36,246 bases of DNA from a virus (Duplodnaviria; Heunggongvirae; Uroviricota; Caudoviricetes). The stretch lies in the IMG/VR virus record IMGVR_UViG_2563366806_000005. One strand, given 5' to 3'. Below are positions 7,922-35,312 of this stretch, piece after piece. Position 1 is the stretch's first letter. Each line of letters starts with the position of its first letter. The translations under genes and the position numbers were made by a program. The notes beneath the pieces are model-generated. The model was not told the DNA's origin, did no database searches, and worked only from the letters and a program-made list of their open reading frames with translations.

Positions 7922-8641
7922 ATGACAACTATTAACAAGCATGGGTTATCTAGAACAATTCCTGAACCTGTAAAACTGGAGGTAAGGCAGCGCTGTGGCT
8001 TCGGTTGCGTTGTTTGTGCTTCTCCCATTGTTGAGTATGAGCATGTAATTCCCACATACGCTGATGCAAAGGAGCACTCTCCAAATGCAATAGCACTACT
8101 TTGTCCTACGTGCCATGCGAAAGTAACGAAACGTCTTTACTCTAAAGAGAAAATAATTAAAGCAATGGAATCTCCTGCAGCCTTACAAAAAGGGAATGTG
8201 GCCGATATATTGGACTTTTCTGATAGGCATCCAACAATAATATTTGGTGGTGCGACGTTTGAATCCTGTACTGTACCAATAATGTTTCAAAATGAGCCAT
8301 TGTTAACCATTGAAAAAGAAAATAATGCTTTTCTTATTTCGGGTAAATTTTACGATAGTCAAGGTATTGTTAATCTTGAATTAATTAAGAATGAGTGGGT
8401 TTGTAGTGCAAGGCATTGGGATGTTCAGGTTGTCGGTCCTAGAATAACTATTATAGAAAAAAGGAAAGGTCCTCGTTTAATTATTAAAGTTGATGCGCCT
8501 GAAAGATTGATTGTGGAAAGATTAGATATGTTGGTTAAGGGGACTCGGATTGTAGGAGACGAACACAAGCTAAGAGTAGGTCCACATCAATTTCACAACT
8601 GTGGAGTTTCAAATTGCAATATTGGTTTCTGCTTTGGCTAA
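7922..8641 (+). CDS. Uncharacterised HNH-motif (zinc-finger nuclease-like) protein, 239 aa; candidate accessory or defence gene
   Basis: CGFGCVVC...EYEHVIP...N..LLCPTCH (CxxC..H..N..CxxCH HNH-type signature) at the N-terminus; AT-rich; located between tum and cos, the P2 old/tin-equivalent position. Confidence 0.55.
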   Translation: MTTINKHGLSRTIPEPVKLEVRQRCGFGCVVCASPIVEYEHVIPTYADAKEHSPNAIALLCPTCHAKVTKRLYSKEKIIKAMESPAALQKGNVADILDFSDRHPTIIFGGATFESCTVPIMFQNEPLLTIEKENNAFLISGKFYDSQGIVNLELIKNEWVCSARHWDVQVVGPRITIIEKRKGPRLIIKVDAPERLIVERLDMLVKGTRIVGDEHKLRVGPHQFHNCGVSNCNIGFCFG

Positions 8642-8754
8642 CTGGAGGTTGGAAAAAGACCATTTCCTATAAGCTGAGTATTTCGTACATTTTTGCCAAC
8701 GCATGTCTATGCCGCATGAAATCGCATGATCGTTTGAGGATCGTTTTTGCTGAT

Positions 8755-8779
8755 GCCCGCCAGAGCTGGCGGGCTTTTG
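8755..8779 (+). terminator. Rho-independent terminator after the HNH gene
   Basis: gcccgcc-agagct-ggcgggc stem-loop followed by tttt. Confidence 0.5.
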
Positions 8780-8823
8780 CTTATGTCATGCAGGTGCATG
8801 AAAACCACTACACAAAGCGGGCA

Positions 8824-8842
8824 GGCGTGGCGGGGATACGAG
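8824..8842. other. cos: Candidate cos (cohesive end) sequence GGCGTGGCGGGGATACGAG
   Basis: Resembles the P2/186 cohesive-end sequence as I recall it (GGCG[A/T]GGCGGGGAAAGCA.) followed by GCGCGC; located between the right-end genes and portal Q, where cos lies in P2. Confidence 0.4.
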
Positions 8843-8864
8843 CGCGCGCCATGTGGTATGGAGA

Positions 8865-8893
8865 TTGGATCTATTCATAACTTGATGTATAAA
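8865..8893 (+). promoter_or_regulatory. Candidate retron operon promoter (-35 ttggat, 17-bp spacer, -10 tataaa)
   Basis: Hexamers read directly, about 25 nt upstream of the effector start. Confidence 0.35.
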
Positions 8894-8916
8894 GTAGAAA
8901 AAAAAGCGGGGAGATT

Positions 8917-9840
8917 ATGAATAAAAAATTTACCGATGAGCAGCAACAACAGCTTATAGGACATCTCACAAAGAAAGGCTTCTATCGAGGAGCTAATATT
9001 AAAATAACCATTTTTCTATGTGGTGGTGACGTTGCTAATCATCAATCTTGGCGTCATCAATTATCACAATTTTTAGCAAAGTTCAGTGATGTTGATATAT
9101 TTTATCCAGAAGATCTATTTGATGATCTTTTGGCTGGTCAAGGGCAGCATAGCCTTTTAAGTTTAGAAAATATTCTGGCTGAAGCTGTCGATGTAATAAT
9201 TTTATTTCCTGAAAGTCCGGGGTCTTTCACAGAGCTTGGTGCGTTCTCTAATAATGAAAACTTAAGGAGAAAGTTGATTTGCATTCAAGATGCAAAATTT
9301 AAATCAAAACGTAGCTTTATTAACTATGGTCCTGTTCGCCTGTTGCGTAAGTTTAATTCAAAATCTGTTTTGCGTTGTAGTTCAAATGAACTAAAAGAAA
9401 TGTGTGATTCATCTATTGATGTTGCCAGAAAATTACGATTATATAAAAAATTAATGGCATCTATTAAGAAGGTTAGGAAAGAAAATAAAGTATCAAAAGA
9501 TATTGGAAATATATTATACGCAGAGCGGTTTCTATTGCCTTGTATCTATTTACTGGATAGTGTCAACTACCGCACACTGTGTGAACTAGCTTTTAAAGCG
9601 ATAAAGCAAGATGATGTTTTATCTAAAATTATTGTTAGATCCGTTGTTTCTCGTCTAATAAATGAACGAAAAATACTTCAAATGACTGATGGTTATCAGG
9701 TCACTGCTTTGGGGGCTAGCTATGTTAGGAGCGTCTTTGATAGAAAGACACTTGACCGATTGCGGCTTGAGATTATGAATTTTGAAAACCGTAGAAAATC
9801 AACATTTAACTATGATAAGATTCCGTATGCGCACCCTTAG
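8917..9840 (+). CDS. Retron accessory effector, 307 aa (Ec86/Eco1-type; reported as nucleoside deoxyribosyltransferase-like N-glycosidase plus DNA-binding domain)
   Basis: Immediately upstream of msr-msd and RT, same strand, stop codon inside msr repeat a1; AT-rich; function assignment is from recalled literature on Ec86, not from a motif I can verify by eye. Confidence 0.8.
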   Translation: MNKKFTDEQQQQLIGHLTKKGFYRGANIKITIFLCGGDVANHQSWRHQLSQFLAKFSDVDIFYPEDLFDDLLAGQGQHSLLSLENILAEAVDVIILFPESPGSFTELGAFSNNENLRRKLICIQDAKFKSKRSFINYGPVRLLRKFNSKSVLRCSSNELKEMCDSSIDVARKLRLYKKLMASIKKVRKENKVSKDIGNILYAERFLLPCIYLLDSVNYRTLCELAFKAIKQDDVLSKIIVRSVVSRLINERKILQMTDGYQVTALGASYVRSVFDRKTLDRLRLEIMNFENRRKSTFNYDKIPYAHP

Positions 9841-9996
9841 CGAGAGGTTTATCATTAAGGTCAACCTCTGGATGTTGTTTCGGCATCCTGCATTGAATCT
9901 GAGTTACTGTCTGTTTTCCTTGTTGGAACGGAGAGCATCGCCTGATGCTCTCCGAGCCAACCAGGAAACCCGTTTTTTCTGACGTAAGGGTGCGCA
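9828..9996 (+). ncRNA. msr-msd: Retron msr-msd non-coding RNA (template for msDNA), Ec86/Eco1-type
   Basis: Flanked by 12-nt inverted repeats a1 tgcgcaccctta (9828-9839) and a2 taagggtgcgca (9985-9996); internal stem-loops gaggtt..aacctc and ggagagcatc..gatgctctcc; sequence matches the Ec86 ncRNA as I recall it. Confidence 0.9.
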
Positions 9997-10002
9997 ACTT
10001 TC

Positions 10003-10965
10003 ATGAAATCCGCTGAATATTTGAACACTTTTAGATTGAGAAATCTCGGCCTACCTGTCATGAACAATTTGCATGACATGTCTAAGGCGACTCGCATATC
10101 TGTTGAAACACTTCGGTTGTTAATCTATACAGCTGATTTTCGCTATAGGATCTACACTGTAGAAAAGAAAGGCCCAGAGAAGAGAATGAGAACCATTTAC
10201 CAACCTTCTCGAGAACTTAAAGCCTTACAAGGATGGGTTCTACGTAACATTTTAGATAAACTGTCGTCATCTCCTTTTTCTATTGGATTTGAAAAGCACC
10301 AATCTATTTTGAATAATGCTACCCCGCATATTGGGGCAAACTTTATACTGAATATTGATTTGGAGGATTTTTTCCCAAGTTTAACTGCTAACAAAGTTTT
10401 TGGAGTGTTCCATTCTCTTGGTTATAATCGACTAATATCTTCAGTTTTGACAAAAATATGTTGTTATAAAAATCTGCTACCACAAGGTGCTCCATCATCA
10501 CCTAAATTAGCTAATCTAATATGTTCTAAACTTGATTATCGTATTCAGGGTTATGCAGGTAGTCGGGGCTTGATATATACGAGATATGCCGATGATCTCA
10601 CCTTATCTGCACAGTCTATGAAAAAGGTTGTTAAAGCACGTGATTTTTTATTTTCTATAATCCCAAGTGAAGGATTGGTTATTAACTCAAAAAAAACTTG
10701 TATTAGTGGGCCTCGTAGTCAGAGGAAAGTTACAGGTTTAGTTATTTCACAAGAGAAAGTTGGGATAGGTAGAGAAAAATATAAAGAAATTAGAGCAAAG
10801 ATACATCATATATTTTGCGGTAAGTCTTCTGAGATAGAACACGTTAGGGGATGGTTGTCATTTATTTTAAGTGTGGATTCAAAAAGCCATAGAAGATTAA
10901 TAACTTATATTAGCAAATTAGAAAAAAAATATGGAAAGAACCCTTTAAATAAAGCGAAGACCTAA
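10003..10965 (+). CDS. ret: Retron reverse transcriptase, 320 aa
   Basis: Retron-RT motifs NLLPQGAPSSPKLANL and RYADDLTLS (YADD box); starts 7 nt after repeat a2. Confidence 0.95.
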   Translation: MKSAEYLNTFRLRNLGLPVMNNLHDMSKATRISVETLRLLIYTADFRYRIYTVEKKGPEKRMRTIYQPSRELKALQGWVLRNILDKLSSSPFSIGFEKHQSILNNATPHIGANFILNIDLEDFFPSLTANKVFGVFHSLGYNRLISSVLTKICCYKNLLPQGAPSSPKLANLICSKLDYRIQGYAGSRGLIYTRYADDLTLSAQSMKKVVKARDFLFSIIPSEGLVINSKKTCISGPRSQRKVTGLVISQEKVGIGREKYKEIRAKIHHIFCGKSSEIEHVRGWLSFILSVDSKSHRRLITYISKLEKKYGKNPLNKAKT

Positions 10966-18515: not shown

Positions 18516-18909
18516 AGCGGTGCCTTATGTCCGCAATAACCCGGACAAACTGCATCTGTTTGTGGATAACGGTTCGCTGGTTGCCACGGGGGCCAGCTCC
18601 ATGTCGTGGGAGTACCGTTACACCCTGAACGCGGTGATTGAGGATTTCAGCGGCGACCAAAATCTGCTGATGGCCCCGGTTTTGCTGTGGCTGCGGGATA
18701 ACCAGCCCGATGCCATCAATAACCCGGCGTTACGGGAAAAACTATTTACCTTTGAGGTGGATATTCTGCGCAACGATGTCTGTGATATCAGCCTTAACCT
18801 GCATCTGACGGAACGTGTGCTGGTCAGCACTGACGGCAGTGTGTCGAGCGTTGAAGCTGTAGCAGAACCCGATGAACCTGAAGAAATGTGGACGGTGAAA
18901 CGTGGCTGA
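18478..18909 (+). CDS. R: Tail completion protein R
   Basis: Position; GTG 18478 with RBS aggag preferred over TTG 18457. Confidence 0.75.
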   Translation: MNKPQSLRHALNKAVPYVRNNPDKLHLFVDNGSLVATGASSMSWEYRYTLNAVIEDFSGDQNLLMAPVLLWLRDNQPDAINNPALREKLFTFEVDILRNDVCDISLNLHLTERVLVSTDGSVSSVEAVAEPDEPEEMWTVKRG

Positions 18910-19348
18910 ACTGCAGAAGGTGGACGACTGGCTTAGTGCCTTACTGGCGAATCTGGAACCAGTCGCAAGAAGCCGCATGATGCGCCAGCTGGCGCAGGAA
19001 CTGCGCCGGACACAGCAGCAGAATATCAGGATGCAGCGCAATCCAGATGGCAGCAGTTATGAACCGCGCAAGGTCACGGCGCGCAGTAAAAAAGGCCGCA
19101 TCAAACGTCAGATGTTTGCAAAGCTGCGCACCACCAAATACCTGAAAACCGCCGCCAGCGCCGACTCTGCCAGCGTACAGTTTGAAAGTAAGGTGCAGCG
19201 CATTGCTCGCGTTCACCATTATGGCCTGCGCGATCGCGTCAGCCGCAAAGGACCGGAAGTGCGTTACGCAGAGCGTCGTTTGTTGGGTCTTAATGGTGAG
19301 TCTTACGTTCTAACTCGTGATATATTGAATAGATTCCTTCTGTCTTGA
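18902..19348 (+). CDS. S: Tail completion protein S; final ~19 codons encoded by the AT-rich insert
   Basis: Position after R; 3' end overlaps the convergent cargo gene by 59 nt. Confidence 0.75.
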   Translation: MAELQKVDDWLSALLANLEPVARSRMMRQLAQELRRTQQQNIRMQRNPDGSSYEPRKVTARSKKGRIKRQMFAKLRTTKYLKTAASADSASVQFESKVQRIARVHHYGLRDRVSRKGPEVRYAERRLLGLNGESYVLTRDILNRFLLS

Positions 19349-20096
19349 ATTCACCATATGCCCAATGAATTGCATTTTTTTGTTCAGTCAGAATATATTT
19401 CCTAACTTTTTTAGAATAGTGAATGGTCAGTATAAAACCCAAAGAAATCCATAATAGAATAAATATGGTTGTTGGGGCAAAGGAATAGATAAAGAATTTG
19501 TCTTTAACGAAATTCTTGACTTCTTCATCAATGTAAGTATTCCCTTCATCAGTGGTTAGTAGTTTACAAAGAATTTCTTTATGTTCGATAGTTAATGATT
19601 TGTACTTCTCTGTACTGGCAGAGGATGACTCTTCGCAATCATCTTTTGATATTTCCCAATCAGGAGTGGTTAATATTGTAGCTGCAGTCGCCAGTTTTTT
19701 TGACATATAAAATGATTCACCGGACTTTATCCAATAAAGCAATGTGCTATTTGGTGGGGTTCTAATGGCTTGGATGAAAACTGGACCAAAAATATAAATT
19801 GCACACAAAAAAAGAAGTGAAAAGAGAACCGTGATTGATTTTTCAGCCCATGTGATAGTAGGCAGCCTTTTTAATGATATTCGTATAAGAAAAAAATTTA
19901 ATATAAACGCAGGTATTCCTGATTTTTTCAAAATTACATCATGAGATTTTCTATATTTGAATAGTGCTCTTATAACTATCGTCACCAAAGTTATAACAGC
20001 TCCAATAATGGAAATCCATGCGGCAAGTGCCGCTGCCGGGGTGTTTAAAAATTCAGCATTAAATATATTAGAACTTATTGGATTCATAACACTCAT
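19290..20096 (-). CDS. Uncharacterised multi-pass membrane protein, 268 aa; AT-rich cargo gene antisense between S and V
   Basis: Hydrophobic helices (AAALAAWISIIGAVITLVTIVI; ITVLFSLLFLCAIYIFGPVFI; FAPTTIFILLWISLGFILTI); strongly AT-rich versus flanks; no recognisable enzymatic motif. Confidence 0.6.
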   Translation of the reverse strand: MSVMNPISSNIFNAEFLNTPAAALAAWISIIGAVITLVTIVIRALFKYRKSHDVILKKSGIPAFILNFFLIRISLKRLPTITWAEKSITVLFSLLFLCAIYIFGPVFIQAIRTPPNSTLLYWIKSGESFYMSKKLATAATILTTPDWEISKDDCEESSSASTEKYKSLTIEHKEILCKLLTTDEGNTYIDEEVKNFVKDKFFIYSFAPTTIFILLWISLGFILTIHYSKKVRKYILTEQKNAIHWAYGEFKTEGIYSIYHELERKTHH

Positions 20097-20135
20097 TTAT
20101 CCACCTATTGGTTGTTTTTTATCCTTTTATCAATT

Positions 20136-20153
20136 TGTACCATCGATACCACA
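20136..20153 (+). promoter_or_regulatory. Ogr-type late activator site TGT-N12-ACA upstream of V
   Basis: tgtaccatcgataccaca, 47 nt upstream of the V start. Confidence 0.5.
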
Positions 20154-20199
20154 ATTTGCAAGAAGTTATAAACAAGTTTTCAGCTGTCATCATATATCT

Positions 20200-20778
20200 A
20201 TGAACGCACAACTAACCGAAATCATGCGCCTTATCACCAATCTGATCCGCATAGGTGTAGTCACCGAAGTGGACCGGGAAAACTGGCTTTGTCGGGTGAA
20301 AACGGGCGACCTTGAAACCAACTGGATCAGCTGGCTGACGCTGCGCGCGGGTAATGCCCGCACATGGTGGCGACCATCGGAAGGTGAGCAGGTGGTGCTG
20401 CTGAGTCTGGGCGGCAATCTGGAGACTGCCTTTGCGCTGCCCGCTGTCTATTCGAATCAGTTCGCACCACCGTCGACGTCGGCGGACGCCTGCGTGACAG
20501 AACATCCTGACGGTGGCTGGTTTGAATACGAACCCGCCACCGGGCGCTGGTATGTCAGGGGCATCAAATCAATGGTCATTGAGGCCGCTGATAACATCAC
20601 CATGAAAACCAGTGAGTTTGTACTGGAGGCTGACCGCACGCGCATTAACAGCGAAGTGGTGATCAATGGTGGCGTTACCCAGGGCGGCGGAGCGATGAGT
20701 TCTAACGGGATCGTGGTTGATGCGCATCAGCATACTGGCGTCCTGAAAGGCGGCGATACAACCGGAGGCCCGGTATGA
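20200..20778 (+). CDS. V: Baseplate spike protein (P2 gpV)
   Basis: ATG 20200 (track start 19957 runs through the promoter region); position before W-J-I. Confidence 0.85.
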   Translation: MNAQLTEIMRLITNLIRIGVVTEVDRENWLCRVKTGDLETNWISWLTLRAGNARTWWRPSEGEQVVLLSLGGNLETAFALPAVYSNQFAPPSTSADACVTEHPDGGWFEYEPATGRWYVRGIKSMVIEAADNITMKTSEFVLEADRTRINSEVVINGGVTQGGGAMSSNGIVVDAHQHTGVLKGGDTTGGPV

Positions 20779-24309: not shown

Positions 24310-24719
24310 TGAATGCGTCATATGCAGTTATTGAAAATGGGATGGTTGTGAATGTCATTGTCTGGGATGGCGAGGATGAATTCACTGTGCCGGATAATCT
24401 GCAGCTCATTAATATTTCTGATATCAGTGAGCAGCCCGGAATCGGCTGGGCGTATTCAGACGGGGTATTTACTGCGCCGCTCCCTCCGGAACGTTCTCAT
24501 GATGAACTGGTAGCTGACGCTGAACAGAAAAAACAGTCGTTGATAGACGCAGCAATGGTCAATATCAGCGTGATTCAGTTAAAGCTGCAGGCCGGGCGGA
24601 AGCTGACGCAGGCAGAAACCACCCGACTTAACGCCGTGCTGGATTACATTGACGCGGTGACGGCAACAGATACCAGCACTGCGCCGGATGTCATCTGGCC
24701 TGAACTGCCGGAGGCGTAG
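24309..24719 (+). CDS. G: Tail fibre assembly chaperone (Tfa / gpG-like), active orientation
   Basis: RBS gagga; overlaps H stop; C-terminal ...LDYIDAVTATDTSTAPDVIWPELP shared with the inverted copy. Confidence 0.75.
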   Translation: MNASYAVIENGMVVNVIVWDGEDEFTVPDNLQLINISDISEQPGIGWAYSDGVFTAPLPPERSHDELVADAEQKKQSLIDAAMVNISVIQLKLQAGRKLTQAETTRLNAVLDYIDAVTATDTSTAPDVIWPELPEA

Positions 24720-25134
24720 GCCATTCAATATCTGGAGCACTGGAGGTATCAACCAGTTCCAGTGCGTCCAGATAATCCAGCCACAAATTATATTGCACCA
24801 GTTCCTCACCTTTCAGACGACCAATTGATGCTTTACCTGGCCATTGTTTACTGTTGATGTATTCGTTGGCCTGATTAATCAATTGCTGCTTTTTAGTTTC
24901 GGCTGATGCAATTTGTTCTTCACGTGTTGGTGGAGGAATATCTACCCATGCAGGCAGTCCATCTTCTCCGACACATCTGTATTTTCCTTCTGGTGGTGTA
25001 TCATAGAAATATTCCCTGAAAATTACTTCGTCTATATCAACACCTTTTTCTTCAGGCCACTCACCTTTTTCAACATAAAGAGACTTAAGTTCGTAAGGAT
25101 ATGCCAGGTTGTTTACGTACAGATATTTCATCAT
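24691..25134 (-). CDS. Alternative tail fibre assembly chaperone (Tfa'), inverted cassette
   Basis: Convergent with tfa; C-terminus ...LDYLDALELVDTSSAPDIEWPTPP paralogous to Tfa. Confidence 0.7.
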   Translation of the reverse strand: MMKYLYVNNLAYPYELKSLYVEKGEWPEEKGVDIDEVIFREYFYDTPPEGKYRCVGEDGLPAWVDIPPPTREEQIASAETKKQQLINQANEYINSKQWPGKASIGRLKGEELVQYNLWLDYLDALELVDTSSAPDIEWPTPPAVQAR

Positions 25135-25508
25135 TACCAGCCCTTAGCGAAAAACGCACCACCTTCAAGACCATAATTGCAGTGAGCTATGAAGCCGGTA
25201 GTGCTCCAGTTGGTCGCCCCCCACATATTCCCACCCCCGAAACCACCATCGCACACAATTACAATGCCCGGTGTCTGTGTAAATGGAATCGGGAATGAAA
25301 CATTGGCGGATACAGGCCCGTGTTCACTAGGAAAACTAATTCGTCCCCACTGTTCAATTGAACCATCTGGCATTTTTCGCCAGCCTGAACCTGATGCATA
25401 TGATGACATATCAGGTATCTGATTTTCCCCAGTTCCCACATTCCGTTTTGCCGCTTCTCCCAAACCAACGTTTAAGAAAATGCAGCGATTACGACTAACT
25501 GGCATCAT
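25134..25508 (-). CDS. Alternative tail fibre C-terminal (variable) segment Sv', would fuse to H after inversion
   Basis: Contains the right crossover site near its 5' end; shares the GLG codons (ggtttggga) in frame with H at the left site. Confidence 0.6.
25455..25480. repeat. Invertase crossover site (right)
   Basis: ttctcccaaaccaacgtttaagaaaa; inverted repeat partner of 23661-23686. Confidence 0.65.
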
Positions 25509-25535
25509 CCCCGATTTTTATTCAAGGAGATGATC

Positions 25536-26102
25536 ATGCTTATTGGCTATGTACGCGTGTCAACAAATGACCAGAACACCGATTTGCAACGTAGTGCGCT
25601 GAACTGCGCGGGATGTGAGCGGATTTTTGAGGATAAAATCAGCGGCACTAAGTCCGACAGACCGGGGCTGAAAAAACTGCTCAGGACACTATCGGCAGGA
25701 GACACGCTGGTTGTCTGGAAGCTGGACAGGTTGGGGCGCAGTATGCGGCATCTTGTTACGCTGATAGAAGAGTTACGCCAGCGTGGTGTGAATTTCAGAA
25801 GCCTGACTGACAGTATTGATACCAGTACCCCAATGGGCCGTTTCTTTTTTCATGTCATGGGTGCCCTGGCTGAAATGGAACGCGAACTGATAGTTGAACG
25901 TACCAGGGCAGGGCTGGCTGCAGCTCGTGCCAAAGGCAGAGTAGGTGGACGCCGTCCTAAGTTGACCACCGAACAGTGGGCACAGATTGGGCGTTTACTC
26001 GAGGCCGGAGAATCAAGACAGCGTATTGCACTGATTTTTGATGTAGGCGTTTCTACCATTTATAGAAAATTTCCGGCAAATAAGAGCAATGAATCCCCCT
26101 GA
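25536..26102 (+). CDS. Serine recombinase, DNA invertase (Gin/Hin/Cin/Pin family)
   Basis: MLIGYVRVSTNDQNTDLQ N-terminus with catalytic Ser, C-terminal HTH; directly adjacent to the invertible segment. Confidence 0.9.
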   Translation: MLIGYVRVSTNDQNTDLQRSALNCAGCERIFEDKISGTKSDRPGLKKLLRTLSAGDTLVVWKLDRLGRSMRHLVTLIEELRQRGVNFRSLTDSIDTSTPMGRFFFHVMGALAEMERELIVERTRAGLAAARAKGRVGGRRPKLTTEQWAQIGRLLEAGESRQRIALIFDVGVSTIYRKFPANKSNESP

Positions 26103-33413: not shown

Positions 33414-33471
33414 TCGTTAAAAAACAGTGCTTCTAACATCATGATTTTAAAGAGCATAAATTTCAGGCAAC

Positions 33472-33514
33472 AAAAAACCCATCAACCTTGAACCGAAATG
33501 GCGGGGTTGATGGG
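33472..33514 (-). terminator. Rho-independent terminator of ybjL (minus strand)
   Basis: cccatcaacc / ggttgatggg 10-bp stem followed on the minus strand by a T6 run. Confidence 0.6.
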
Positions 33515-33626
33515 CTCCACAAAATGGGGACATCAAAGAAAAGCAGTGGCACTAATTAAGACTGATGCCCTGCGGAAAAGTTCTGCGGTTGTGCAAAAAA
33601 ATTTCATTTTCAGGGCAACTTCAGTT

Positions 33627-35312
33627 TTATCCTAATCCTGGCCATACCATGACGATGATTGTCCCTGCCAGCGTCAGCAGGACGTTGGCGATTGCATAGG
33701 TGCCCGCATAGCCCAGCGCCGGGATGTTACTGCGAGCTGTATCACTGATGATCTCCATTGCCGGCGCGCAGGTACGTGCGCCCATCATTGCGCCGAACAA
33801 CAGCGCGCGGTTCATTCGCAATACATAAGCACCGAACAAGAAACAGATAACCACGGGCACCAGACTGACAATCAATCCGGCAATCAACATCTGACCGCCA
33901 ATCGCGCCCAGGCCGTTATTAATACCGCTACCGGCGCTCAGACCAACGCCTGCCATAAACACCATCAAGCCGAACTCTTTCACCATGCTTAATGCACCCT
34001 GCGGAATGTAACCGAAGGTCGGGTGGTTAGCACGCATAAAGCCCAGCATAATTCCGGCGAATAACAACCCGGCAGCGTTCCCCATGCCGAAACTGAATGT
34101 GCTGAACTGGAAGGTGATCATCCCGATCATCAGCCCAATAACAAAGAAGGCGCAAAATGCCAGCAGGTCAGTGACCTGGCTGTGAATCGAGATAAAGCCG
34201 ATGCGATCGGCGATGGTTTTTACGCGACGGGCATCACCGCTGACTTGTAAAACGTCACCTTTGTTAAGCACGACGTTGTCATCTATCGGCATCTCAATCT
34301 GGCTACGAATGACGCGGTTAAGGAAGCAACCGTGATCGGTCAACTTCAGTTGTGCGAGACGTTTACCTACAGCGTTATGGTTTTTAACGACCACTTCTTC
34401 AGTGACGATACGCATGTCGAGAAGGTCACGATCGAAAACTTCTTTACCGTTACGGAAGCTGGGATCGAGTCGGGCATGGGCGTCGGGATAGCCTACCAAC
34501 GCTATTTCATCGCCCATTTGTAGCACGGCATCACCGTCTGGATTTGCCAGAATCCCGTTACGTCGAATACGTTCAATGTAGCAGCCGGTTTGTCGATAAA
34601 TACCCAGTTCACGCAGATTTTTGCCGTCGGTCCAGGCCACCAGCTCCGGGCCGACGCGATAGGCGCGGATCACCGGTAAATAAACCTTACGGTTGGCATC
34701 AGTGTCCAGGCCACGTTCGCGGGCGATTTGCTGGGCGCTGGTCTGTAAGTCCTGATGCTGCAATTTCGGCAAGTAACGCGCACCAACAATCAAACTCACC
34801 AGACCGATTAAATAGGTTAAGGCATACCCGAGGCTCAGATTATCCAGTGCCAGTGAGAGCTGCCTGCTTTCCATGCCGGAATGACGCAGTGTATCGCCAG
34901 CACCGACCAGAACCGGTGTCGACGTCATAGAGCCTGCTAACATACCGGCCGTCAGGCCAATATCCCAGCCAAACAGCTTACCTAACCCTAAGGCGATCAC
35001 CAGCGCACTGCCAACCATCACCAGTGCTAACATTAGGTAATTTTTCCCATCGCGAAAAAAAATGGAAAAAAAGTTCGGTCCGGCTTCAACCCCAACACAG
35101 AAAATAAACAGCATAAAGCCAAGATTAAGCGCATCGGTGTTAATGCTGAAATGTTGTTGGCCTAATAACAGCGATACGACTAAAACGCCAATGGAATTAC
35201 CCAGTTGGATCGAACCAAGTCGTAACTTTCCGAGACATAGCCCAAGCGCGAGGACCACAAATAATAACAGAATGTAATTCCCATTTAACAATTCGGCGAC
35301 GTTTATATTCAC
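33627..35312 (-). CDS. ybjL: Putative transport protein YbjL (AAE-family transporter)
   Basis: 561-aa polytopic membrane protein; N-terminus [33 protein letters not shown] matches E. coli YbjL as I recall it. Confidence 0.85.

Follow-up and report, generated by a model that had tools for sequence, protein, structure and literature searches.

An antisense DUF6216 membrane-protein gene between tail genes S and V of a P2-like prophage and its retention in decayed prophages

Why would a P2-like prophage carry, between two of its late tail genes, an AT-rich gene that is read in the opposite direction? This question is raised by a 36,246-nt stretch of viral DNA (Caudoviricetes; IMG/VR record IMGVR_UViG_2563366806_000005), the whole of which we call the window. 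An open reading frame (ORF) of 268 codons with an ATG start lies at 19290..20096 on the minus strand, antisense between the tail completion gene S and the baseplate spike gene V. An earlier reading made from the letters alone (the sequence-only reading) had described a 268-aa antisense ORF with at least three hydrophobic helices, AT-rich compared with S and V, that shares 59 nt with the 3′ end of S. This description is accurate: the coordinates are right, the product has three strong hydrophobic segments, the module from 19280 to 20199 has a GC content of 32.8% against 57.0% in its flanks, and S and the ORF overlap tail-to-tail at 19290-19348. The change in composition is abrupt, with GC fractions of 0.30-0.375 in 200-nt segments within 19300-20199 and of 0.55-0.62 on both sides. 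No stop-free stretch of at least 268 codons appeared in 5000 shuffles of the 920-nt module (mean 68, maximum 178). The proportion of synonymous differences (pS) was lower in the overlap than in the remaining gene in 7/7 comparisons. The gene is real and codes for a membrane protein.

Part of the setting was already known, namely the slot (as orf30, since the P2 annotation), the DUF number of the protein, its annotation in Escherichia coli BL21(DE3) and its status as an H-NS target. New here are a family that is bound to the slot, its probable kinship with P2 Orf30, a predicted topology with an invariant, putatively disulfide-bonded cysteine pair, the cassette structure, and a putative promoter that overlaps the Ogr site. 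The chief new point is that in decayed prophages this gene is the last to stay intact.

The DUF6216 family and its retention in decayed prophages

The sequence-only reading did not recognise the protein, which can in fact be assigned to the Pfam family DUF6216 (PF19723; E = 1.5e-11, its 44.5 bits exceeding the gathering score of 27.3) and is annotated as a 'DUF6216 family protein' in BL21(DE3) (ECD_RS04470, WP_000115390.1; protein identical). The match joins residues 72-237 to model positions 114-265 of 270. Members of the P2-linked subfamily are longer by ~22 residues at the C-terminus, and this extension overlaps S. Over 19250-20250, a span that takes in the entire gene, the DNA matches E. 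coli B, BL21(DE3), REL606 and further B derivatives at 100% identity; a member of a family without an assigned function is thereby found in some of the most used laboratory strains, and its presence in BL21 opens an easy and decisive experimental path. In BL21(DE3), the gene resides in a defective P2-like prophage at the ybjL site that also carries retron Ec86/Eco1. The whole window is an intact relative of this prophage (best match in the genome collection 91% covered, 97% identity), and at least 80% of the region is present in 111/5426 complete E. coli genomes, many of them B-lineage laboratory strains.

We found 31 full-length homologues at 50-99% identity, under names that include Escherichia, Salmonella, Klebsiella, Citrobacter and Serratia, and PF19723 is precomputed on every one of them. 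DUF6216 is a small family: a profile searched exhaustively against 1.84 billion representative proteins returned only ~50 clusters at 50% identity (E ≤ 0.001). A scan of genome contigs with a narrower alignment gave 5 loci. No family of PADLOC-DB v2 matched the protein at E up to 10, and PHROGs (E above 0.1) and NCBIfam gave nothing usable. Neither the protein nor a distant branch of the family (L099) had a match in 50,697 deposited phage genomes (tblastn). In the literature, the accession WP_000115390.1 is not mentioned, and the only relevant mention of DUF6216 is in a September 2026 preprint on H-NS (bioRxiv 10.64898/2026.09.05.749240).

Wherever the context is readable, DUF6216 genes lie in the P2 S–V slot or its remnants. 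Even a member that is only 19% identical to the window protein (L103/L104) still sits between V and S and overlaps the 3′ end of S. When the DUF6216 loci were each searched by tblastn with the full set of phage proteins from the window, they fell into a series of eight stages of prophage decay. The P2-like prophage is intact in Buttiauxella (stage 1, L016), lacks its head genes in L103 (stage 2) and is a scrambled remnant in Serratia rubidaea (stage 3, L008/L009). In Klebsiella aerogenes (stage 4, L004-6), V is reduced to 23 codons, an insertion sequence (IS) element is present, and R is frameshifted and N-terminally truncated. Citrobacter youngae (stage 5, L012) has V, S and R in fragments beside an intact DUF6216 gene, 80% identical to that of the window, and Scandinavium (stage 6, L007/L015) retains only CI, an OLD-like ATPase and fragments of V and int. 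In metagenome assemblies (stage 7, L018-20) the gene stands alone, the other phage trace being a 34-residue int fragment, and at the end of the series (stage 8, L013, L014 in Citrobacter sedlakii, and L017) are lone DUF6216 genes with no other phage sequence detectable. From stage 5 onward the loci adjoin ybjL, the integration site of the window prophage. The DUF6216 ORF is intact in every locus of the series, and its dN/dS relative to the window gene is 0.15-0.33 (dS up to ~1.9), indicating purifying selection.

An ORF that stays intact and under purifying selection while S, V and R are pseudogenised indicates that selection acts on the cell. The intact copies in decayed prophages of several genera amount to a natural experiment that points to a benefit for the cell and not the phage. 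Since the gene is maintained past the death of the prophage, a role in virion assembly is ruled out, and any role that depends on a live phage is strongly disfavoured. We therefore consider it likely that the gene is selected for a benefit to the host or lysogen.

The selection data also bear on the simplest alternative, that this is a neutral or decaying acquired ORF which persists under H-NS silencing. Such an ORF could be AT-rich, H-NS-bound and silent in wild-type BL21, as this one is. The low dN/dS, the frame kept open at every locus beside fragmented S, V and R, the invariant cysteines, the conserved promoter and Shine-Dalgarno elements and the failure of shuffles to yield such an ORF all speak against it; the selection data largely refute it, and we find it barely credible.

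Some features of the remnants are recorded here in their own right. The Scandinavium remnant keeps a CI-type repressor, a GIY-YIG protein and a 662-aa OLD/AAA_15-type ATPase, with no structural gene left, so that its survivors besides the repressor are accessory-type genes. The lone DUF6216 genes (L013, L014, L017 and L018-L020) are 34-66% identical to the window protein and lie between ybjL and an rcdA-like TetR gene. They have diverged far more than the adjacent ybjL (92-96% identity), which suggests either independent prophage decays or fast evolution. ORFs of 76-78 aa beside the lone genes were considered as Ogr remnants, had no Pfam hit, and the idea was dropped.

An exchangeable cassette in the S–V slot

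We compared 84 loci that have both S and V; most are IMG/VR prophage contigs picked for similarity to the window S, and the frequencies are biased accordingly. The slot is empty in 67/84, with a gap of ~70 nt, in relatives that are otherwise 88-99% identical in S. In the remaining loci (17/84) it is occupied, and in all 17 the cargo is AT-rich (31-36% GC) with its ORF on the minus strand. The sequence-only reading had suggested such a comparison of S–V intergenic regions across P2-like prophages, regarding the position as a tolerated cargo site and allowing that the protein could turn out to be a conserved virion-assembly component. The empty slots and the varied cargo bear out the tolerated site, and the absence of the gene from most close relatives disposes of the conserved component.

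The cargo is diverse. The 268-aa DUF6216 protein, with three transmembrane (TM) segments, occupies nine loci counting BL21(DE3), and the distant L099 branch supplies a 231-aa relative (family-profile E = 3e-29; Pfam 43.8 bits). Other membrane proteins are P2 Orf30 (261 aa, three TM segments) and those of L031 and L032 (253 and 228 aa, two TM segments each). The soluble cargo includes a 176-aa protein of phage Cartapus and a 449-aa protein (L054/L055) that has no database hit and contains RNIIIH, a HEPN-like Rx4H motif seen by eye; judged from this motif, it is possibly an unrecognised HEPN defence gene. A 584-aa protein with an ApeA-like HEPN assignment (PADLOC E = 1.4e-13) is found in L048 (IMG/VR UViG_2541047812_000004). 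In phage R18C, a 741-bp hypothetical ORF replaces orf30 (PMC6823313).

How is the cargo joined to its surroundings? Upstream, the neighbour of S is R (PF06891). In the insert-free relatives Klebsiella phage 4LV2017 and Escherichia phage 500465-1, S and V are separated by a GC-rich spacer of ~68 nt, and the Ogr dyad lies within a few bases of the S stop codon. Identity between the window and insert-free relatives is 0.8-1.0 along S, drops to 0.57 over the final 30 nt compared, which begin at 19292, and resumes exactly at the V ATG, with 90-97% identity to 4LV2017 from the first codon. The left border of the cassette is thus inside S, at ~19280-19292, and the right border is the start of V. Between them are a diverged homologous S C-terminus, the antisense gene and the cassette's own version of the pV promoter region. 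In this region, the centre of the Ogr dyad is ~55 nt upstream of the V ATG, a geometry that matches the pV annotated in P2 (activator site 10239-10266, transcription start given as the V ATG at 10308; P2 record).

The C-termini of S differ accordingly, the window reading …RRLLG LNGESYVLTRDILNRFLLS and the insert-free form …RRLLG VNDDVEAMTRDIILQWLAG. Indeed, the last ~18 S residues past the conserved RRLLG take a different form with each type of S–V cargo (window, L003, L031, L032, L048, L054 and L099). Because the variants differ by cargo, the C-terminus of this essential tail protein is swapped along with the cargo and tolerates considerable change. The collapse of identity inside S, its return at the start of V and the cargo-specific S C-termini argue for a swappable cassette rather than an insertion that spared the ancestral promoter. 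The sequence-only reading had taken the late promoter of V to be left intact and the last ~19 codons of S to be encoded by the insert. The dyad is indeed at 20136-20153, but it was not spared, as the cassette has its own diverged copy; likewise, the S codons are better described as part of a cassette that brings its own versions of the S C-terminus and the pV promoter. We are all but certain that this is accessory ('moron') DNA which P2-like prophages exchange as a cassette in the S–V (orf30) slot.

Predicted architecture and relation to P2 Orf30

Kyte-Doolittle hydropathy gave strong segments at residues ~20-44, 87-109 and 201-225 (16-49, 81-113 and 201-229 when looser windows were merged) and a weaker amphipathic stretch at 61-75. 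The N-terminal tail (1-19) has no K or R, the loop at 45-86 has 9 K/R and 2 D/E, the 87-residue second loop is net acidic, and the C-terminal tail is basic. The topology prediction proposed by the sequence-only reading thus returned three strong hydrophobic segments with a positive-inside pattern. By the positive-inside rule, the protein is predicted to have its N-terminus outside and its C-terminus in the cytoplasm. The predicted layout is a periplasmic N-tail (1-19), TM1 (20-44), a basic cytoplasmic loop (45-86), TM2 (87-109), a periplasmic domain (110-200) that contains C154 and C177, TM3 (201-225) and a basic, helical cytoplasmic tail (226-268). The distant L099 branch keeps the DUF6216 segment layout.

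In an alignment of 45 DUF6216 sequences that extends down to 13% identity, two residues alone are invariant, C154 and C177 of the second loop, and P114, F129 and W147 are at least 90% conserved. The invariant pair fits a structural disulfide, which would support the periplasmic placement of the loop. Within the subfamily, the most conserved segment is the tail at 226-248. An AlphaFold2 model built from the same alignment (predicted local distance difference test, pLDDT, 85; predicted template modelling score, pTM, 0.72) folds the periplasmic domain as a four-stranded sheet with two helices, and has a 65-residue helix (183-247) that passes from the periplasm through TM3 into the cytoplasm. Foldseek searches of BFVD with the whole model or the periplasmic domain gave no match at E ≤ 0.001, and a hidden Markov model (HMM) search of PDB sequences gave none.

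A protein of this shape could be an abortive-infection membrane effector, comparable to RexB and other TM effectors, which would sense an envelope or cytoplasmic cue of infection, collapse membrane integrity or potential and kill the cell. Several TM segments, a very long helix through TM3 and a tail that is the best conserved part of the subfamily would suit this role, as would tight H-NS silencing of a potentially toxic product and the sharing of the slot with a HEPN/ApeA-like protein of abortive type. Set against this, the gene stands without a sensor or antitoxin partner in the contexts examined, no PADLOC or Pfam effector matches it, lone copies are stable in chromosomes, and the invariant periplasmic disulfide domain suggests extracytoplasmic recognition rather than pore formation. 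We judge an abortive effector to be improbable.

P2 Orf30 (NP_046770.1) occupies the slot in P2: it is encoded on the minus strand at the S–V position and annotated as nonessential (P2 record), just as the sequence-only reading had stated. It is like the window gene in slot, antisense orientation, AT-richness and length (261 versus 268 aa). Both proteins have three TM segments, a K/R-rich first loop and a basic tail, and their second loops, of 86 and 87 residues, each have exactly two conserved cysteines. Orf30 differs in that its gene does not overlap S and that a putative terminator is annotated between S and orf30. Direct similarity is marginal (BLASTP E = 0.043, 23% over 172 residues; hmmsearch E = 0.05), and Orf30 has no Pfam hit. 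When profiles were aligned with hhalign, a narrow DUF6216 profile scored 0.3% against the Orf30 family, and a broad one reached a probability of 43% (E = 2.4e-4) over 83 columns that take in both conserved cysteines, the next helix, TM3 and the basic tail. Remote homology between DUF6216 and Orf30 is therefore probable rather than demonstrated. P2 orf30, which has gone unexplained since the annotation of its genome, gains from this a wider family context and a testable hypothesis.

Expression signals and candidate function

To what extent is the gene expressed? An alignment of eight loci over the ~135 nt that precede the start codon has an invariant TGGTACAA block in 8/8, including three loci without V; this block forms the putative extended -10 element. 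The alignment also has a putative -35 element, likewise on the minus strand, and a Shine-Dalgarno sequence (Table 1), and the predicted transcription start is near 20127. In exactly the three V-less loci, the left arm of the Ogr dyad is changed from TGT to TAT. Since the -35 and -10 elements are kept where V is gone and the Ogr arm has decayed, their conservation points to a promoter of the antisense gene itself, putatively of sigma-70 type. A strict consensus promoter scan did not call this promoter, which is proposed on the strength of its conservation. The Ogr dyad overlaps the -10 element and the spacer, which suggests that Ogr binding late in the lytic cycle would occlude the putative DUF6216 promoter.

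We scanned for an intrinsic terminator after S and after the antisense gene (19349-19420 and 19190-19300) and obtained no hits (fold z-scores of -0.67 and -1.25). As none was found after S on either strand, late transcription from pO probably runs antisense through the DUF6216 gene. The convergent S and DUF6216 transcripts would collide; in P2, the putative terminator mentioned above lies between S and orf30.

In the laboratory, the gene appears to be held silent. Chromatin immunoprecipitation sequencing (ChIP-seq) of H-NS in BL21-AI placed the DUF6216 gene among three peaks in the prophage, and RNA sequencing (RNA-seq) detected upregulation of the DUF6216 region in an hns stpA double mutant and only in that mutant (bioRxiv 10.64898/2026.09.05.749240). 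The gene is thus silenced under standard conditions, and the claim of the sequence-only reading that it is expressed in the lysogen is doubtful for laboratory growth. The validated immunity genes Eco1, Lit and Kunado/YmfE are similarly bound by H-NS and derepressed (bioRxiv 10.64898/2026.09.05.749240).

These signals could also be taken to mean that the gene serves the phage life cycle. Its product might set the time of lysis, in the manner of a holin or antiholin, or govern the exit or entry of DNA; alternatively, antisense transcription or H-NS nucleation might regulate the neighbouring late operons. It lies in the late region, convergent with S and divergent from V, with a promoter that overlaps the Ogr site and no intrinsic terminator between it and the S transcript, and its TM1 has a weak, sub-threshold likeness to HP1-type holins. 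This likeness is too slight to make the protein a holin (Phage_holin_2_3, HP1 family, 14.5 bits against a gathering score of 28.8, E = 0.037, TM1 only; PHROG holin E = 0.26), and that identity was rejected. Moreover, the gene is missing from 67/84 close relatives and unmatched in all the deposited phage genomes searched, its P2 counterpart in the slot is annotated as nonessential, and its ORF is kept where the phage is dead. A life-cycle role is very unlikely.

Table 1. Features of the S–V region and of other loci in the window
Feature	Position	Strand	Basis and remarks
Tail completion gene S	18902..19348	+	PF05069 132 bits, PHROG 26; last ~20 codons cassette-borne
AT-rich accessory cassette	19280..20199	.	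Composition; replaces the ~70-nt S–V spacer of insert-free relatives
DUF6216-family inner-membrane protein CDS, 268 aa	19290..20096	-	ORF, Pfam, homologues, predicted topology
Dual-coding overlap	19290..19348		Last 19 codons of S (+) and of the DUF6216 gene (-)
Shine-Dalgarno sequence AGGTGG	20101..20106	-	4 nt upstream of ATG; GG core invariant in 8 loci
Putative extended -10 TGG-TACAAA	20134..20142	-	8/8 loci
Ogr/Delta-type activator dyad TGT-N12-ACA of late promoter pV	20136..20153	+	Sequence; P2 pV geometry
Putative -35 TTGCAA	20156..20161	-	7/8 loci, TTGAAA in the eighth; 16-nt spacer
Baseplate spike gene V, which opens the pV late operon	20200..20778	+	PF04717 65 bits and Apex motif; ATG at 20200
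Retron NDT effector	8917-9840		PADLOC NDT_II-A, E 3e-94
Retron reverse transcriptase	10003-10965		PADLOC RT_II-A, E 7e-128
RybB small RNA	33469-33547	-	Rfam RF00110, 105 bits; just past the right end of the prophage

What benefit could a silenced membrane protein bring to the cell? We envisage a single inner-membrane protein with a periplasmic N-tail, three TM helices and an ~87-residue periplasmic alpha/beta domain closed by a C154-C177 disulfide, from which a long helix would pass through TM3 into the conserved basic cytoplasmic tail. Its gene would be read antisense to the late operons from its own sigma-70-type promoter, overlapped by the Ogr dyad, in DNA coated by H-NS. Given this overlap and coating, expression would be expected only outside the lytic cycle, upon relief of H-NS silencing, and the protein would serve the cell and not virion production. 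It could act from the inner membrane as a barrier of the superinfection-exclusion type, in which the periplasmic domain would disturb the machinery by which incoming phages deliver their genomes; the phages affected would possibly be P2-like ones or others with contractile tails.

Exclusion would most plausibly account for the own, non-late promoter, for H-NS silencing like that of validated immunity cargo and for a variable antisense slot that also houses an ApeA-like protein. It would likewise most plausibly fit a single gene without partners, whose conserved feature is extracytoplasmic and which survives in dead prophages. The sequence-only reading had called the protein a strong candidate for superinfection exclusion or abortive infection, roles that are here held to be conjectural. 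An anti-phage function of some kind has, in our estimate, an even chance. As an explanation of the whole, a host-benefit cassette that acts as an exclusion-type barrier is the best available and falls somewhat short of that; by analogy with known exclusion proteins, a block of phage entry in particular is a tentative suggestion, a little weaker still.

Several observations weigh against exclusion. The protein has no detected homology or fold match to any defence protein, and the topology, disulfide and promoter are predictions. Under H-NS silencing, the protein may rarely be made. In the only experiment that bears on the gene, made in BL21-AI deleted for the retron, hns and stpA deletions left the infectivity of T5 and Gostya9 unchanged (bioRxiv 10.64898/2026.09.05.749240). 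The association of the slot with defence is through one ApeA-like type of neighbour. Surveys of P2-like hotspots cover gpA-Q, Z/fun and other sites, the S–V slot not being among them.

The working model is the SieA protein of P22, a single prophage-encoded inner-membrane exclusion protein whose target is the conduit through which related phages, and they alone, bring their DNA across periplasm and membrane. Because SieA has this narrow range, a test with two phages (T5 and Gostya9) says little. The DUF6216 protein resembles SieA in being a single prophage-encoded protein of the inner membrane, here by prediction. It differs in phage family and genome position, and in that the activity of SieA is demonstrated and that of DUF6216 inferred. 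No similarity to SieA emerged from library searches of PADLOC, PHROGs and BFVD, in which no direct pairwise comparison was made. More broadly, PHROGs, PADLOC, BFVD and hhalign against YmfE gave no homology to inner-membrane exclusion proteins of the P22 SieA, T4 Imm, HK97 gp15 or YmfE/Kunado type.

Two further comparisons are instructive. YmfE/Kunado of prophage e14 is an H-NS-silenced TM protein, likely an injection blocker, that is active against T5-like phages (bioRxiv 10.64898/2026.09.05.749240). Both genes are AT-rich prophage cargo encoding multi-TM proteins, bound and silenced by H-NS/StpA; YmfE/Kunado differs by protecting against T5-like phages, which derepression of the BL21 prophage lacking Eco1 did not do. 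Homology between the two was considered and rejected (hhalign 0.9%; YmfE has no Pfam family). The P2 genes old, tin and fun(Z) and other hotspot cargo are likewise nonessential, AT-rich, antisense or independently transcribed, set in fixed slots and exchanged among P2-like phages. In contrast to the DUF6216 protein, old, tin and fun(Z) encode soluble proteins and occupy the gpA-Q and G-FI slots.

The benefit to the cell need not concern phages. The gene could confer, by lysogenic conversion, immunity to a membrane-targeting bacteriocin, a tailocin or a contact-dependent toxin, or provide an envelope-stress or colonisation factor. As the sole intact gene left after full prophage decay in several genera, under purifying selection, it shows a benefit without specifying the target, and both a predicted inner-membrane protein with a periplasmic domain and the lack of a T5-like phage phenotype upon derepression would agree with such a role. 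However, the protein resembles neither immunity proteins nor envelope factors that are known, no toxin gene is linked to it in the loci examined, and the other identifiable cargo of the slot is anti-phage. We consider a phage-unrelated envelope benefit unlikely.

The exclusion-type reading has a bolder form. DUF6216, with Orf30 as a remote branch, would be a new class of single-protein inner-membrane immunity, with no known fold and specific to the S–V slot, whose disulfide-bonded periplasmic domain would intercept the membrane penetration or DNA delivery of contractile-tail phages or tailocins, and which Enterobacterales would have domesticated repeatedly. At the rybB–ybjL site it would be the one gene kept alive in dead prophages, and in E. 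coli BL21(DE3) it sits under H-NS silencing. In this full form the idea is doubtful. If exclusion as such is true, the gene would encode a structurally new entry-blocking protein, P2-like phages would have one more cargo slot given to defence, and one more silent immunity gene would be present in 'defence-free' hosts of the BL21 type. Should the benefit lie elsewhere, the product is still a domesticated prophage envelope protein.

Elsewhere in the window, a hotspot between gpA and the portal gene (7922-10965) carries a type II-A retron (Table 1) together with an ORF that has an HNH domain (7922-8641). This retron matches Ec86/Eco1 as annotated in the BL21(DE3) prophage; Rfam called no msr/msd RNA at the window retron. 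Next to RybB at the right end is ybjL (33627-35312), and the window prophage and the lone DUF6216 remnants of other genera are all in the rcdA/rybB–ybjL interval, which suggests rybB as the attachment site. A recombinase ORF (25530-26102; 'recombinase family protein' in its BL21(DE3) counterpart) follows tail-fibre and assembly ORFs on the opposite strand (24691-25508, minus). The segment from 24691 to 26102 looks like an invertible host-range segment, of a kind that is common in P2-like phages (iLund4u preprint).

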